64,000 nucleotides of DNA. Source: Dehalococcoidia bacterium (GTDB lineage Bacteria > Chloroflexota > Dehalococcoidia > UBA2979). Below are positions 46,261-52,583 of the stretch, piece after piece. The position numbers were made by a program, and so were the translations under genes. Every line of letters starts with the position of its first letter. The stretch's first letter is position 1. The DNA lies in the NCBI GenBank assembly GCA_041690175.1, contig JAWLHV010000004.1, positions 130,528 through 194,527 on the forward strand, given 5' to 3'. Below the pieces are notes generated by a model, which was not told the DNA's origin, did no database searches, and was given only the letters and a program-made list of their open reading frames with translations.

Positions 46261-48009
<1,749 letters not shown>

Positions 48010-48073: not shown

Positions 48074-49618
48074 CTAGGGACGGAGGCGGTAGACGTGCCC
48101 ATCCAAGCGTGGATTCGCCTCGTCGGTGGTCACCTCCTGTGTGATGAGGAGCAGCGAGCCGTCGTCGGAGAGCACCGGGATGCCGCCGATGAGGGAGTGC
48201 GGCTCAGCCACTCTCAGCCTGGAGCCGTCGCGAGTGTCCAGGATCTCGGCCGGATGGATGACGGCACGATCCTGAGCCCCTTCCCCCGCAGCCATCACTT
48301 CCATGCATGCGGCGAGGAACAGACGTCCGTCGCGGAGGACGGTCCACGAGCCGGGGATGAGCCGCAGAATGCACCCCGGGCGAAGGCGCTGTTCCTCGAC
48401 CGCCCCCGAGGATGCGTCAACGAGGGCCATGCCCTCCGCCGCTCGGAGCGAAGGGAGTGCCGGCAGCGTCCACTCCTCTTCAGGGTTTCGAGCCTGGACG
48501 GCTTGCTGAAGCGCCTCACTGTACCCGCGCTTCGAGGACTCCTCGATGCCCCCGAGGACCGCGAACCGTCCGTCGCCGAGTCCCGCGACCGCGAGGTCGA
48601 CGCCCAGGCTGGCTGGCATGTCCAGCCAGTCACCCACGGCGTCGTCGGGTGAGATCACGAGCAGTCCCTGGGGGCCAACGAACGCCGCGTGGCCGTCGTC
48701 GGAGCGGGCGGCGCTGAAACTCCCGTCGTCTAGCACCTCGGAGGGCACCCGGACGAACGTCCGGAGGTTGACGGCTGTATCCGTACTCGGGTCATACCGG
48801 GAGATGACCAGTTGGCCGTCGTCGCTGCGCCCTGGAGCGTTTCGCTCCGAGAGCACCAGCGCCCCGCCACGACCGTCGCTCACCAGCGCGAGCACCCTAC
48901 TCCCGAGGTTGACCCGCGCGGCGGAGAACTCGCCCGTTGCGCTGTCAAAGATCTGCAGTACTGCACTGCTGGTGCTCTGCCCCAGGCCGGCCCCGCCACC
49001 GACGAGCGCGCGACCACCCTCAAGAGGAACGATTGCGTGGCCGACCCGCGGAAACAGCATGTCCCCGACGGGCTCCCACTCGTTTGCAGCGGGGTCGTAG
49101 AGCCAGGCCTCGCGGGAGTTGCCGAGGTCGTCAACCGCGAACTGGTAGCCACCGGTGGCAAGCACGCGTCCGGTGTCGAGCATCGTCGCCGCACCACCGT
49201 TAGGGTTCCATGGTGCCGCACCGAGGTCCTCCAGGGCGTCCGGCGCCACGAGGCGTCCCGGCTCCTCCTGGGCCGCGCCGCCGTTCCCCCACGCCACCAC
49301 CACGACCACCGCCACCACCACCACGGCCGCCACGGCCCCACCGCCGAGGAGCACCGGCAGCAGAGGAAGCGCGAACAGCGCTCGGAGGCGGGTGCGCCAG
49401 CCGTAGTGCTCGCGGTACCAGGCGCCCACGTCCTCGCGGCGTGCGAGGCCGAGGCGGCCGAGGAGTTCCGAGACGTGGTACTTCGCGCCGTCCAGCGAGA
49501 TGCCCAGGGCGTCCGCGATCTCGCGGTTGCTCTTGTCCTCCGCGATGAGCCGGGCCACCTCGCGCTGCCGGTCGGTGACGGGCTCGGTGCGATCGGTGCG
49601 GGCGGCGGGCGCGTCCAT
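48074..49618 (-). CDS. membrane-anchored LuxR/GerE-type HTH protein with Kelch-like beta-propeller ectodomain
   Basis: ATG at 49618. N-terminal GerE HTH (TDRQREVARLIAEDKSNREIADALGISLDGAKYHVSELLGRLGLARREDV). One TM (LFALPLLPVLLGGGAVAAVVVVAVVVVVAW). About 400-aa C-terminal domain with Kelch-like repeats (LYDPAANEWEPVGDM, GHAIVPLEGGRALVGGG). Confidence 0.7.
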   Translation of the reverse strand: MDAPAARTDRTEPVTDRQREVARLIAEDKSNREIADALGISLDGAKYHVSELLGRLGLARREDVGAWYREHYGWRTRLRALFALPLLPVLLGGGAVAAVVVVAVVVVVAWGNGGAAQEEPGRLVAPDALEDLGAAPWNPNGGAATMLDTGRVLATGGYQFAVDDLGNSREAWLYDPAANEWEPVGDMLFPRVGHAIVPLEGGRALVGGGAGLGQSTSSAVLQIFDSATGEFSAARVNLGSRVLALVSDGRGGALVLSERNAPGRSDDGQLVISRYDPSTDTAVNLRTFVRVPSEVLDDGSFSAARSDDGHAAFVGPQGLLVISPDDAVGDWLDMPASLGVDLAVAGLGDGRFAVLGGIEESSKRGYSEALQQAVQARNPEEEWTLPALPSLRAAEGMALVDASSGAVEEQRLRPGCILRLIPGSWTVLRDGRLFLAACMEVMAAGEGAQDRAVIHPAEILDTRDGSRLRVAEPHSLIGGIPVLSDDGSLLLITQEVTTDEANPRLDGHVYRLRP

Positions 49619-49668
49619 GGGCGCGAGCGTAGCCAGCGCCTCCGCGCGGTGCACTACCCGGCTTGTGA

Positions 49669-49722
49669 AACGGTGCGCGCCGAGCGCGAGCGCGCAACGG
49701 TGCGCGCCGAGCGCGAGCGCGC
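49669..49722. repeat. 27-bp perfect tandem direct repeat (x2) between the two LuxR-HTH membrane protein genes
   Basis: AACGGTGCGCGCCGAGCGCGAGCGCGC at 49669-49695 and again at 49696-49722. It starts about 50 nt upstream of the 48074..49618 gene start and ends 1 nt before the stop of the 49724..50917 gene. Confidence 0.9.
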
Positions 49723-49723
49723 G

Positions 49724-50917
49724 TCAGGGCAGGTACTGGAGCGGGTCCTGGAATACGCCCTCGCGGCGGACCTCGAAATGGAGGTGCGGCTCCGGCGTGC
49801 GGCCAGTCATCCCCACCCAGCCAATGGTGTCGCCCGCGTCCACGAAGGCTCCGAGGGCCACCGCGAAGTCGTTGAGGTGGGCGTACAGCGTCTCGTACCC
49901 GTCGCCGTGGTCGACGATGACGTGGTAGCCGTAGTCGCAGCAGGGGTTCCCGCTGGCATAGGTGACGGTCCCGGCACGAGAGGCCACTACGGTCGTGCCC
50001 CACTCCGTGGCCAGGTCGATCCCTTGCGGGTGGTTCGGCCCCCAGGCGTTGAGGATGCTGCCCTCGACGGGCCATATCCACCCACTCGCCACGATGCTCC
50101 CCGCTCCCGGCCGCGAGGGCGGCGCGGCCTGGAGCGGTACTTTTCGGCCGCCAGGGACGAGCACCAGCATGCCCGGCCGCAGGCGGTTCGGGTCACCGTC
50201 CAGCCCGTTCGCCTCGAACTCCAGGAGGGCGCGCCAGTCCGCGTCGAACCGTCCTGCGATGCTGGTCACGGTGTCACCCGGGCGCACGGAGGCGATGATC
50301 CCGGGGACCGGCGGGACCTGGAGGAGCAGTCCGGGCCGAAGGTCCGCATCGCTCCCGACCTCGATGTTGTTCCAGATGATGTGGTCCCGCTGGACGGCGA
50401 ACCGCGCCGCGATGCCGTCGAGGGTGTCTCCGGCCTGGACCTCGTACTCGTAGAACAGGGGGATCCGTTCCCCCGGTGTGGTCACGGCCGCTGTTGGGGT
50501 CACCTCCGGCTGGGGCGTCGCCTCCGGCACTTCGGTGACCACCGCGAGAGCCGTCGCCGTCGCCGTGGCGGTGGCAGTCGTCGGCGGTGTCTCCGCGCGT
50601 CCGCCACCGAGGGCGATGGCCACGGCGGCCACCGGCACGGCCAGTCCCAGCACCGCGCCGAGCGGCCAGCGCGCGCGCAGCCGTCCCCACCGCCGGCGCA
50701 CTACCGCGACGGGCCCCACGTTCTGGCGGTACCACGCCGCGACGTCCTCGCGCCGCTGCACGCCCAGCCGGCCGAGGAGTTCCGAGACGTGGTACTTGGC
50801 CCCGGCCAGCGAGATCCCCAGCGCTTCCGCGATCTCCGGGTTTGAGCGGCCCTCCGCGACCAGGCGGGCGACCTCACGCTGCCGATCCGTGATCTGCTCG
50901 ATGGCGTCCCGCTGCAT
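49724..50917 (-). CDS. membrane-anchored LuxR/GerE-type HTH protein fused to 2x LysM and an M23 (LytM-type) peptidase ectodomain
   Basis: 397 aa. N-terminal HTH nearly identical to the neighbouring paralog (TDRQREVARLVAEGRSNPEIAEALGISLAGAKYHVSELLGRLGVQRREDV). One TM. Thr/Ala/Pro linker. LysM repeats (YEVQAGDTLDGIAARF; VRPGDTVTSIAGRF). M23 catalytic motifs HQGID and HLHFE. Confidence 0.75.
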   Translation of the reverse strand: MQRDAIEQITDRQREVARLVAEGRSNPEIAEALGISLAGAKYHVSELLGRLGVQRREDVAAWYRQNVGPVAVVRRRWGRLRARWPLGAVLGLAVPVAAVAIALGGGRAETPPTTATATATATALAVVTEVPEATPQPEVTPTAAVTTPGERIPLFYEYEVQAGDTLDGIAARFAVQRDHIIWNNIEVGSDADLRPGLLLQVPPVPGIIASVRPGDTVTSIAGRFDADWRALLEFEANGLDGDPNRLRPGMLVLVPGGRKVPLQAAPPSRPGAGSIVASGWIWPVEGSILNAWGPNHPQGIDLATEWGTTVVASRAGTVTYASGNPCCDYGYHVIVDHGDGYETLYAHLNDFAVALGAFVDAGDTIGWVGMTGRTPEPHLHFEVRREGVFQDPLQYLP

Positions 50918-50976
50918 GCGCGGAGCATGCCCGACCGTGGGCGGGGATGCACTAGCCGATCAAATGTTCGTCAGAC

Positions 50977-52110
50977 TCACTCCGAAGGCGGTTCGTACCC
51001 CAGCAGCGCCAGGATCGGGTCGGCCTCCTCGGAGGTGGCGGGCCTCGGGCGGTTCTCGTCCACGTCGATGCGGGCGGGGCGGAGTTCCAGGGCGGGCGGC
51101 TTGCCGGTCTCGAAGGTCACGAGGGCGACCACGGACTGGAACGGGCCCTCGCCCAGGACCTCCAGGTCCTCCGCGTCCAGGTCGAAGACGAAGTTGCCCA
51201 GCGAGTGGAGGATGAGTCCGCCGCCGTACTCCTCCACCTCCTGCAGGACGTGCGGGTGCGTGCCCACCACCAGGTCCGCCCCGGCACCGATGGCGGCGTG
51301 GGCGAGTTCGCGCTGGCGTGCGGTGACCTGGTGGGTGTACTCCGTGCCGGCGTGCAGCGTGACCACCACGAAGTCCACGTCCGGCCGCTCCCGCATCCGC
51401 CGCACGTCCTCCTGGACCGCCTCCACGGACGCGCGCGCCACGCCGCCCTTCTCCCCCTCCGCCCAGATCACCTCGCCGATGTCGTCGTAGCCGAGGTAGG
51501 CGATGGTGGGGGTGCCGGGCGCCTTGCCCACGACGCCCGCGCGCGCCTCCGCCTCCGTGCGTCCCGCCCCGAACCAGCCGATGCGGTGCGCGTCCAGCGT
51601 CTCCAGCGTCCGCTCTAGGCCGGCCAGTCCGTAGTCCGTGGCGTGGTTGTTGCTCAGGCTCACCGCCCAGAACGGGGAGAGGCCGCCGGCCAGCGCCGGA
51701 TCGAGGGCAAACTGGTACTGCTTGTCCAGCGGCTCGCCCACGTCCGTGACCGCGCCCTCCAGGTTCGCCACCACCACGTCCGCCCCGGCGAACAACTCCG
51801 CCGTCCGCGCCAGGGGGTAGTCCACGCCGATCTCCGCCATGGCCGCCTCCACGTCGCGCTCGAGCATCACGTCACCCACGAACGCGACGGTGATGCGCTC
51901 GTCCTCCTCGTCCGGCTCGTGGGTGGGCGCGGGTGTAGCGGTGGCGGTGGTCGCCGGCGTGGGTGTGGGCGAGGGGAACGTGACGCCCTCGGTGCGCAGC
52001 GCGCCGTCCCCGCCGCACCCGGCCAGGAAGGAGGCGAGCGAGATGGCCAGGTAGACGAAAACTCCCCGCCGTCGCCGGCCCGGGGACCCGAGGCGGGCGT
52101 TGCTGCTCAC
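50977..52110 (-). CDS. CapA / PGA_cap-family metallophosphoesterase lipoprotein
   Basis: GTG at 52110, directly after the upstream thioesterase stop. Signal peptide with lipobox LAGCGG. Metallophosphatase His/Asp blocks (VAFVGDVM, NLEGA, NNHATD, GTHPHV). A start at ATG 52155 would overlap the upstream gene by 49 nt. Confidence 0.75.
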   Translation of the reverse strand: MSSNARLGSPGRRRRGVFVYLAISLASFLAGCGGDGALRTEGVTFPSPTPTPATTATATPAPTHEPDEEDERITVAFVGDVMLERDVEAAMAEIGVDYPLARTAELFAGADVVVANLEGAVTDVGEPLDKQYQFALDPALAGGLSPFWAVSLSNNHATDYGLAGLERTLETLDAHRIGWFGAGRTEAEARAGVVGKAPGTPTIAYLGYDDIGEVIWAEGEKGGVARASVEAVQEDVRRMRERPDVDFVVVTLHAGTEYTHQVTARQRELAHAAIGAGADLVVGTHPHVLQEVEEYGGGLILHSLGNFVFDLDAEDLEVLGEGPFQSVVALVTFETGKPPALELRPARIDVDENRPRPATSEEADPILALLGYEPPSE

Positions 52111-52583
52111 TCCGCTGGGGGCATCAGGATGAGCACGGCCTGGCCCCGCACGCACTCTTTGCCCTGCGCGCTCAGCGTGGTCGAGACGACCACCTTCCGC
52201 CCACTGATCTCGTCCACCCGGCCGCGCAGCGTCAGCGGGACCCCGACCGGCGTTGGCGCCGCAAAGTCCACCTTCAGCGACGCCGTCACGAACCGCGGCA
52301 AGTCACCCTGGCCCGGCTCCTGCCCGTCCTCGCGCGCGCGGGCGGCACTGGCGGTGGCGGTGCTGTGGCAGTCGATCAGGGAGGCGAGGATGCCGCCGTA
52401 GAGGTTTCCCGGGACGCCGCCGGTCAGGTGCTCCCCCGGGGTGAACACGGTCAGGCTGACCGCATCGTCCTCGGGATCCCAGGTGGTCCGGACCCGGAGG
52501 CCGCGCTCATTCAGGCGCCCGCACCCGTAGCAGTGTGAGTTCGCGTCCGAGTAGAGGTCCTGGAAGGCGGCTGGCTCTGTCAT
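52107..52583 (-). CDS. PaaI/YiiD-type hotdog-fold thioesterase
   Basis: 158 aa. Hotdog thioesterase core (GEHLTGGVPGNLYGGILASLIDCHS). Confidence 0.7.
   Translation of the reverse strand: MTEPAAFQDLYSDANSHCYGCGRLNERGLRVRTTWDPEDDAVSLTVFTPGEHLTGGVPGNLYGGILASLIDCHSTATASAARAREDGQEPGQGDLPRFVTASLKVDFAAPTPVGVPLTLRGRVDEISGRKVVVSTTLSAQGKECVRGQAVLILMPPAE

Follow-up and report, generated by a model that had tools for sequence, protein, structure and literature searches.

Transcription regulators that sit in the membrane have been catalogued on a large scale. Demey et al. 2023 (PMC10269533) listed 50,302 transmembrane transcription regulators (TTRs), among which GerE, with 4,943 entries, was the third commonest DNA-binding domain. 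Here we analysed two adjacent genes, called M and K, in a 64,000-nucleotide stretch of DNA from a Dehalococcoidia bacterium (contig JAWLHV010000004.1; the whole stretch is referred to below as the window). Their products each join an N-terminal LuxR/GerE helix-turn-helix (HTH) to one transmembrane (TM) helix and a large ectodomain, which is a Kelch-type propeller in K and a pair of LysM repeats followed by a Peptidase_M23 domain in M. The census supplements contain Rcas_0145 of Roseiflexus castenholzii, a protein of 454 residues with GerE, one TM helix and four Kelch repeats, which matches K in domain order and is likewise from the Chloroflexota. The partner-domain table of the same paper includes LysM in 25 TTRs and PGA_cap in 3, and Peptidase_M23 is absent from it, so the architecture of M is unrepresented in the census, which is a catalogue only and carries no function, promoter or specificity. 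K is thus close to a catalogued, unstudied architecture and M adds a LysM-M23 ectodomain new to the TTR census. The initial annotation of this locus had taken the architecture to be undescribed, which held for the M23 fusion in M and not for the GerE-Kelch arrangement in K.

Functional work on membrane-bound LuxR-type proteins comes from other lineages. BguR of Formosa agariphila is a proven membrane LuxR-type activator (bioRxiv 10.64898/2026.01.10.698779). It resembles the M/K family in working without a phosphorelay and in having a conserved putative operator motif recovered by comparative genomics, but its polarity is opposite, with a signal peptide, two propeller regions, Y_Y_Y and a TM helix preceding a C-terminal GerE domain. 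BguR, from the Bacteroidota, controls an adjacent polysaccharide utilisation locus, whereas only self-promoters are detectable for the M/K family in the Chloroflexota. In Eggerthella lenta, DadR, CadR and HcdR are LuxR-type proteins with 10-12 TM helices and are genetically proven, substrate-responsive activators (PMC9734109). They share with the M/K family an integral membrane location and a lineage-specific expansion (83 in one strain) with conserved HTHs and divergent sensors. They differ in having a polytopic N-terminal sensor, a C-terminal HTH, neighbouring enzyme genes as targets and no large ectodomain.

Other systems share the layout and not the DNA-binding fold. ToxR, CadC and TcpP act from the membrane and have their DNA-binding domain at the cytoplasmic N-terminus, joined through a single TM helix to a sensor in the periplasm. 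This DNA-binding domain is a winged helix of the OmpR type (Trans_reg_C), and ToxR and TcpP need ToxS and TcpH; no conserved partner was found for the M/K family. The initial annotation had likened the locus to ToxR and CadC in logic with a different fold, and with no Trans_reg_C match in M or K at E up to 0.1 in Pfam the comparison is one of logic only. Clostridium thermocellum has nine RsgI paralogs built in a similar way, with a conserved cytoplasmic module at the N-terminus, a single TM helix and extracellular sensing modules that vary. In RsgI the cytoplasmic module binds a sigma factor and not DNA, and signalling is reported to need autoproteolysis and cleavage by RseP (PMC10328401, PMC12203970).

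The ectodomain of M and the position of its HTH recall two further groups of proteins. The LysM plus LytM layout of the M ectodomain is shared with the amidase activators DipM, NlpD, ActS and EnvC and with the active M23 proteins ShyA, MepM, LytM and Csd1, none of which has a cytoplasmic DNA-binding domain as M does. RodZ-type proteins act in cell-wall morphogenesis, and the RodZ HTH binds MreB. RodZ resembles M and K in having an N-terminal cytoplasmic HTH, one TM helix, an extracytoplasmic domain and a tie to cell-wall growth; it differs in its XRE-type HTH_25 and DUF4115 domains, its single copy per genome and its lack of a private promoter box.

Domain architecture of M and K and the family around them

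Both open reading frames (ORFs) were recovered on the minus strand at the coordinates initially annotated, and the following features were assigned to them.

49724..50917, minus strand: gene M, 397 residues; ORF, identical to database protein P0012
50735..50896, minus strand: LuxR/GerE HTH of M, residues 8-61; PF00196, 41.4 bits (cut-off 23.5)
50600..50668, minus strand: single TM helix of M, residues ~84-106; hydropathy scan
50153..50449, minus strand: two LysM repeats of M, residues 157-202 and 211-255; PF01476, 44.8 bits over two stretches
49742..50026, minus strand: Peptidase_M23 (LytM) domain of M, residues 298-392; PF01551, 97.2 bits (cut-off 28.7)
48074..49618, minus strand: gene K, 514 residues from ATG 49618; ORF, database copy P0142 100% identical and also 514 residues
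49430..49579, minus strand: LuxR/GerE HTH of K, residues 14-63 of the 514-residue protein (26-75 of the 526-residue ORF); PF00196, 37.6 bits (cut-off 23.5)
49289..49378, minus strand: Val-rich TM helix of K, residues ~95-122; hydropathy
48077..49258, minus strand: extracytoplasmic Kelch-like propeller of K, residues ~121-514; Pfam Kelch and Foldseek

M runs from the GerE HTH through one TM helix and a Thr/Pro/Ala linker to LysM, LysM and Peptidase_M23, and K from the GerE HTH through one TM helix to the Kelch-type beta-propeller. The initial annotation had proposed an N-terminal LuxR/GerE HTH for both proteins, and the Pfam scores bear this out. The recognition helix is G-A-K41-Y42-H43-V44-S45-E in M and G-A-K46-Y47-H48-V49-S50-E in K, retaining the Lys and His of the NarL type, and AlphaFold2 gave four helices for each HTH with a block-mean predicted local distance difference test (pLDDT) of ~92-93. 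No Response_reg (PF00072) receiver domain and neither of the RodZ domains HTH_25 and DUF4115 was found in M or K with Pfam. NCBIfam held no family-specific model; its response-regulator models matched only through their C-terminal 50-60 residues and far below the cut-off.

The two ectodomains, described initially as Kelch and LysM-LysM-M23, were recovered in agreement by Pfam, AlphaFold2 and Foldseek. In the M model (mean pLDDT 79.9) both LysM units show the beta-alpha-alpha-beta fold and M23 is predicted with confidence; the LysM-M23 ectodomain sits on a Thr/Pro linker of 45 residues. K scored with Kelch_4 at 30.1 bits (cut-off 21.6), Kelch_3 at 29.2 (22) and Kelch_1 at 24.1 (20.1), was modelled as a propeller with a predicted TM-score (pTM) of 0.71, and matched eukaryotic and designed Kelch structures in Foldseek (NS1-BP, KEAP1, KLHL12; E 3e-13, TMt 0.6-0.66). 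Each protein has one hydrophobic segment, with flanks that fit the proposed cytoplasmic HTH. The Arg-rich tether VVRRRWGRLRAR precedes the helix in M, 6 Arg residues in M and 3 in K stand before the helix, and the C-terminal side is acidic or neutral in both. By the positive-inside rule, the topology of M and K would be N-in/C-out, with the HTH in the cytoplasm and the ectodomain outside. The operational definition of a TTR, a DNA-binding domain and at least one TM region in a single protein (PMC10269533), applies to both, since each combines GerE with a hydrophobic segment longer than 19 residues. The stretch VVVVAVVVVV in the K helix is encoded by a GTG-rich, trinucleotide-like run at 49289-49346 (TRF periods 3, 9, 12, 15 and 18), where slippage could change the length of the helix in frame.

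The N-terminal modules had been called almost identical over about 60 residues. They are paralogous, as proposed, at the lower identity of 75% over 65 residues (BLASTP E 3e-27), and no third copy of the HTH module occurs in the window. Since the DNA of the modules is 76% identical and third positions match in only 63% of identical codons, a recent tandem duplication or gene conversion is ruled out, and M and K are best described as old paralogs that selection at the protein level keeps similar.

The survey of the architecture across genomes that had been suggested for this locus turned up a large family in the peptidoglycan-bearing Dehalococcoidia/Tepidiformales with several paralogs per genome and not an isolated oddity. 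Searched exhaustively with HMMER, the representatives at 50% clustering gave 819 matches to the 112-residue M module at E<1e-10. Of the best 150, about 120 place the recognition helix near residue 42 and a single TM helix near residue 90, in proteins of 280-670 residues. GerE was found in every member scanned with Pfam (101/101), and Sigma70_r4_2 also scored in 43/101. The ectodomains of these 101 members include Kelch-type, PD40 and DPPIV_N propellers, LysM, sortase and SH3 domains, and most have no Pfam match. A locus scan of one genome per GTDB species gave at least 404 family loci, of which the best 78 are almost all in metagenome-assembled genomes of Dehalococcoidia, Tepidiformales or Tepidiformaceae, with several copies per genome (at least five in JBFWUX01). 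Tandem arrays occur, as at L017:1902-6915 with three family genes in a row and also in L018, L019, L023 and L005. About ten sequence clusters have the complete M architecture; every one of them comes from this clade, and NCBI labels them only as 'peptidoglycan DD-metalloendopeptidase family protein'. M and K are thus assigned to a large lineage-specific family with an N-terminal LuxR HTH, one TM helix and variable ectodomains. A separate group of predicted proteins, 2,800-7,700 residues long with 6-18 GerE-like stretches, also scored high against the module (P0132-P0135, P0138, P0149 and others); these may form a repeat family of their own or be artefacts of gene calling.

Tepidiforma, a relative of the host clade that has been cultured, is monoderm with 20-30 nm of peptidoglycan under an S-layer (PMC10284905). 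Given such a wall, peptidoglycan would be within reach of a LysM-M23 unit carried on the 45-residue linker of M.

The promoter box and the recognition helix

Upstream of both genes we found a conserved box and a -10-like hexamer at nearly the same distance from the start codon.

50948..50969, minus strand: M promoter box GAACATTTGATCGGCTAGTGCA, with core TCGGCTAGTGCA at ~-42 to -31 of the ATG; conserved upstream of M orthologs
50924..50929, minus strand: M -10-like hexamer CATGCT, 6 nt before ATG 50917; from sequence and family-wide geometry
49650..49661, minus strand: K promoter box CCGGGTAGTGCA, at ~-43 to -32 of the ATG
49626..49631, minus strand: K -10-like hexamer TACGCT, 7 nt before ATG 49618; kept in L005 and L010

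The M promoter reads CGGCTAGTGCA, N18, CATGCT, N6, ATG, and the K promoter CGGGTAGTGC, ~20 nt, TACGCT, 7 nt, ATG. In an alignment of the M-K spacer from three genomes CGGGTAGTGC was invariant, and the K proteins of the two relatives share only 38-39% identity with K. The most likely start of K is ATG 49618 and not GTG 49654, because this ATG and the promoter-like sequence before it are kept in relatives and because P0142 has 514 residues. On both strands of the window GGNTAGTGC occurs only twice, once before M and once before K.

The same arrangement recurs across the family. In other genomes, almost all of the 77 family genes compared have some form of (CTTTACC)ATCGGGTAG(G/T)G at a fixed distance from TAnnnT, with the consensus cATCGG(G/C)TAG(G/T)G for the box and the spacing box, 20 +/- 1 nt, TAnnnT, 6-7 nt, start codon. 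TAGTGC was present in 15 of the 77 upstream regions, where 0.9 would be expected. As a composite, the pattern box, N19-21, TAnnnT, N5-8, ATG gave 46 matches on both strands of 797 kb, and 44 of these lay directly before family genes. By the family geometry the box spans ~-51 to -33, and neither a -35 hexamer nor an extended -10 was recognisable in the family promoters. The start codon sits at the expected transcription start, which implies that the family mRNAs are leaderless. Not all members are leaderless, however: the second and third genes of L017 have the box and the -10 and also a leader of ~25 nt with the Shine-Dalgarno-like GAGAGGAAC. A wider regulon was sought with a relaxed 10-mer, for which 90 matches had no scripted link to a family gene. 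Most of these look like chance matches in coding sequence, a few are family genes overlooked by the motif filter, and in L018 a single box-like site stands before an ORF that is not credible.

The recognition helix of the family, G-A-K-X1-H-V-X2-E, varies only at X1 and X2. BLASTP aligned GAKYHVSE with TVKVHVKH of NarL (K188/V189/H190/V191/K192), which places X1 at V189 and X2 at K192. In the NarL-DNA and NarL-RNA polymerase structures K188, V189 and K192 contact bases and H190 the backbone, and at the yeaR promoter NarL acts as a class-II-like activator from a site at -43.5 (PMC10853779). In the 57 genes with a detected promoter both variable residues followed the box. TAG-G went with X1 = Trp in 33/33 genes and TAG-T with Tyr, Phe or His in 22/24 (Fisher p 8e-14, uncorrected for phylogeny). 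Arg or Ser at X2 tracked the 6-mer before TAG in 52 of the 53 genes that have one of these residues: Arg occurred with at[a/g]g[a/g/t][g/t] in 19/19, and Ser with [a/g]tCGG[g/c] or atag[a/c]C. X1 and X2 occurred in all four combinations, with matching boxes, and the single genome JBFWUX01 holds both Trp/TAGGG and Tyr,Phe/TAGTG paralogs. A relaxed scan of these promoters produced no Tyr, Phe or His gene with TAGGG.

When these characters were placed on a neighbour-joining tree of the module, built with both variable positions masked, 5/5 changes of X1 and 9/9 changes of X2 fell on branches where the matching DNA character also changes, against 0.3 and 0.8 overlaps expected. The four combinations set a floor of three concordant switches. 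Because the box co-varies with the very residues that align with the base contacts of NarL, there is good, though indirect, evidence that the family HTH binds the family box. A limited literature search gave no match to a family-wide private promoter with a two-residue code, which is not proof of novelty.

One further feature lies in the M-K spacer.

49669..49722, no strand: perfect 27-bp tandem duplication, two copies of GCGCGCTCGCGCTCGGCGCGCACCGTT, directly upstream of the K box; TRF

The initial annotation had named this repeat as a candidate binding site, which the comparison with relatives does not support. It is unique in the window and absent from the same spacer of L005 and L010, and the conserved box lies beside it. 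Its last bases overlap CGTTTCACAAG, a stretch conserved in L010, and as RNA it folded no better than shuffled sequences (z -0.67).

Mode of action and rival explanations

Three observations call for an explanation: how the domains are arranged, the presence of a box that has a fixed geometry and is exclusive to the family, and the co-variation between residues and bases. As far as sequence can tell, they support a transmembrane regulator that at least autoregulates, and the reading of M and K as transmembrane LuxR-type regulators is likely. The one-component transmembrane regulator of the initial annotation gains support in its DNA-reading part, where binding is putative and rests on the co-variation of the box; peptidoglycan as the signal of M and its M23 activity are candidate roles.

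For the mode of action, the balance tips slightly towards M and K being transmembrane one-component LuxR-type regulators that activate their own promoters in response to input from the ectodomain. The cytoplasmic HTH would be held ~20 residues from the membrane and would bind cATCGG(G/C)TAG(G/T)G centred near -40 of its own promoter. Binding would most likely activate from a class-II-like position, as for NarL at -43.5; activation is favoured because the box sits in a promoter without a -35 hexamer or an extended -10. M and K would also be expected to cross-regulate each other's promoters, because both have Tyr at X1 and Ser at X2 and their boxes are nearly equal (CGG[C/G]TAGTGCA). The ectodomain would serve as the input, in K through the Kelch propeller with a putative ligand, and its state would be coupled to DNA binding. 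In M it is likely an effector too, with two LysM repeats and M23/LytM reaching peptidoglycan. A further-reaching version is tentative, and we give it less than an even chance: a self-contained sensor-regulator-effector in which each ectodomain protein is its own tethered activator, with a two-residue code, cross-activating paralogs, and leaderless, co-translational insertion that keeps the gene beside its product.

Several points weigh against M and K as signal-responsive activators. In ~860 kb sampled, none of the genes outside the family was found to have the box, so a regulon beyond self-regulation is undemonstrated. A scan for consensus sigma-70 promoters gave no match here. The box has no obvious palindrome in its M and K versions, though LuxR-type HTHs usually bind as dimers. 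The co-variation comes from 57 genes and a poorly resolved tree of a short module, so that the number of independent switches may be overestimated, and there are five Trp genes with TAGTG boxes in all, three of them added by the relaxed scan. When three neighbours on each side of loci L001-L084 were clustered, no conserved partner gene (ToxS- or anti-sigma-like) appeared; the clusters covered at most 6 loci and consisted of generic enzymes. Finally, the first zinc motif of M has the form Hx4D, and the inactive DipM and EnvC are among its nearest structures.

These points leave room for other explanations. It is unlikely, though not far-fetched, that M and K are mainly exported enzymes or binders, with the HTH-TM part as an interchangeable anchor, signal-independent negative autoregulation by promoter occlusion and no transmembrane signalling. 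Such a role would suit the presence of the LysM2-M23 unit on a plain signal anchor in the housekeeping context CTP synthase-Rho-LysM/M23, its fusion to a PGA_cap lipoprotein in L010, the restriction of the detected box-bearing genes to the family, and the overlap of the box with the -35 region, where repression is also possible. However, promoters without a recognisable -35 or extended -10 are probably weak without an activator, the degenerate catalytic sites of some relatives (P0015 with HLRFE, P0021, P0032) suit binding or sensing better than a purely enzymatic role, and the proven membrane LuxR-type proteins are signal-responsive activators. Regulated proteolysis is a rather improbable alternative, in which engagement of the ectodomain would lead to cleavage near or in the TM helix, as for RsgI with RseP, and a soluble 80-residue HTH would then act at its own promoter as well as on a regulon elsewhere. 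Against it, the neighbour clustering linked no protease gene to the family, no cleavage motif was identified, ToxR, CadC and TcpP act from the membrane (PMC10269533), and leaderless translation with co-translational insertion could hold the gene of each protein at the membrane. What speaks for proteolysis is the RsgI-like organisation, in which paralogs share the cytoplasmic module at the N-terminus and the single TM helix but differ in their ectodomains, and the tether of ~20 residues, which makes DNA hard to reach from the membrane.

Finally, it is very unlikely that the HTH is a protein-interaction or anchoring module like that of RodZ, that the box is a -35-region element of a dedicated sigma factor or of another regulator, and that the correlation between them arose by joint inheritance. 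RodZ-type proteins (HTH_25, TM helix, DUF4115) are indeed counted among the transmembrane 'regulators' of the census, the promoter and the HTH are physically linked and inherited together, and Sigma70_r4_2 scores in part of the family. Yet co-variation involves precisely the two positions aligned with base contacts of NarL, residue and box changes share branches several times, both specificity types in one genome would need two dedicated sigma factors, and the HTH is of the GerE type and not of the XRE type of RodZ.

If the HTH does read the box, the family offers a compact specificity code, two residues to two DNA positions, recovered purely by the comparison of paralogs. If M and K act as transmembrane regulators, a mirror-image layout (HTH first, one TM helix, large ectodomain) would join the membrane LuxR-type regulators of Coriobacteriia and Bacteroidota, and a peptidoglycan-binding peptidase module would be wired directly to gene expression in the basal Dehalococcoidia, where a cell wall has been shown only recently. 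It would also give a handle on leaderless, activator-dependent promoters in a phylum with almost no genetics.

The M23 domain, its other anchors and the gene neighbourhood

The M23 motifs of M are HPQGID, YAHL and HLHFE. The initial annotation had called HxxxD and HxH intact, which holds for HxH (HLHFE), and YAHL is intact as well. The first zinc motif, H-P-Q-G-I-D, is Hx4D and one residue longer than the canonical HxGID, and HMMER paired its His with the ligand His of NMB0315 only via a one-residue insertion. The HPxGID variant is kept clade-wide in the clade alignment, non-HTH paralogs included. In Foldseek the C-terminus of M matched LytM folds at E ~1e-13 to 1e-8, both the active ShyA, Csd1 and LytM and the inactive DipM and EnvC, sequence matches in the PDB likewise included active and inactive LytM domains, and the best NCBIfam match was DipM (E 1.4e-32, 113 bits against a cut-off of 900), with NlpD also sub-threshold. 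M is not like the degenerate LytM factors in loss of zinc ligands: compared with DipM and EnvC it retains Asp, YAHL and HxH, and compared with the active enzymes it differs in the Hx4D form of the first motif. It is plausible that M is catalytically competent.

Zinc or catalytic residues are missing from three orthologs that carry the HTH (P0015 with HLRFE, P0021 with DDPRAID, P0032 at several positions), and these residues are retained in the six nearest non-HTH paralogs and in two more distant ones (alignment A1). M23 catalysis thus appears dispensable in some relatives, which hints at a weaker constraint on it when the M23 domain is joined to the regulator module. Some M-like proteins (P0016, P0025, P0027, P0029) have an extra conserved domain of ~120 residues between the TM helix and the first LysM, with the motif CW.G.W..G.WP...G.L.P.YFPDGW and no Pfam match (alignment A1, columns ~230-390); P0027 and P0029 stop after the LysM repeats and have no M23.

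The LysM-M23 unit is also found on other anchors. The closest non-HTH homologs of the M ectodomain, at 59-61% identity, have a plain signal anchor, and non-HTH LysM-M23 paralogs (L086:5001-6110 and the P0023 contigs) lie in a conserved block of CTP synthase, DUF2269, transaldolase, Rho and LysM-M23. The copy in this block looks like the housekeeping source of the M ectodomain. An extracytoplasmic function (ECF)-type sigma factor and HrcA are encoded near the block. In an uncultured Dehalococcoidaceae genome (L010:531-2372, CAYTRA010000144.1) a 613-residue ORF fuses a PGA_cap lipoprotein in frame to LysM-LysM-M23, without an HTH or TM helix between the parts, with HxH altered to WLH and with a K ortholog directly after. 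This fusion ties the capA-like gene to the M ectodomain in the manner of a Rosetta stone, and in L006 PGA_cap precedes the M ortholog. From the signal-anchor homologs, the L010 fusion and the L006 gene order, the LysM-M23 unit is read as portable between anchors and functionally tied to PGA_cap. P0076 was considered as a convergent XRE-HTH-LysM-M23 protein and ruled out; its HTH_19 match overlaps a LysM helix and is spurious.

M and K belong to a long co-directional run of minus-strand genes in DNA of ~70% G+C. In the order of transcription the genes are PGA_cap, M, K, an AMP-binding enzyme resembling acetyl-CoA synthetase (Acs-like), a putative lipoprotein, so called from a reading of its sequence, and citrate synthase. 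Two of the neighbours were placed as follows.

50977..52155, minus strand: PGA_cap (CapA-like) gene, directly upstream of M; PF09587, 211.9 bits
46261-48102, minus strand: Acs-like ORF as listed, with a 29-nt overlap with the end of K

The capA-like gene had been described as lying downstream; by the direction of transcription it is upstream of M, and by eye its product has a lipobox-like FLAGC. A terminator scan gave a single terminator-like match, on the wrong strand and inside K. The true start of the Acs-like gene is probably ~31 codons further in, near 48009, because its ortholog in L001 has 582 residues and begins with MIEGYPEIARD; the K-Acs spacer would then be ~65 nt. In a relative at 62% identity the Acs gene follows M directly and K is absent from the syntenic site, and a second relative retains the M-K tandem.

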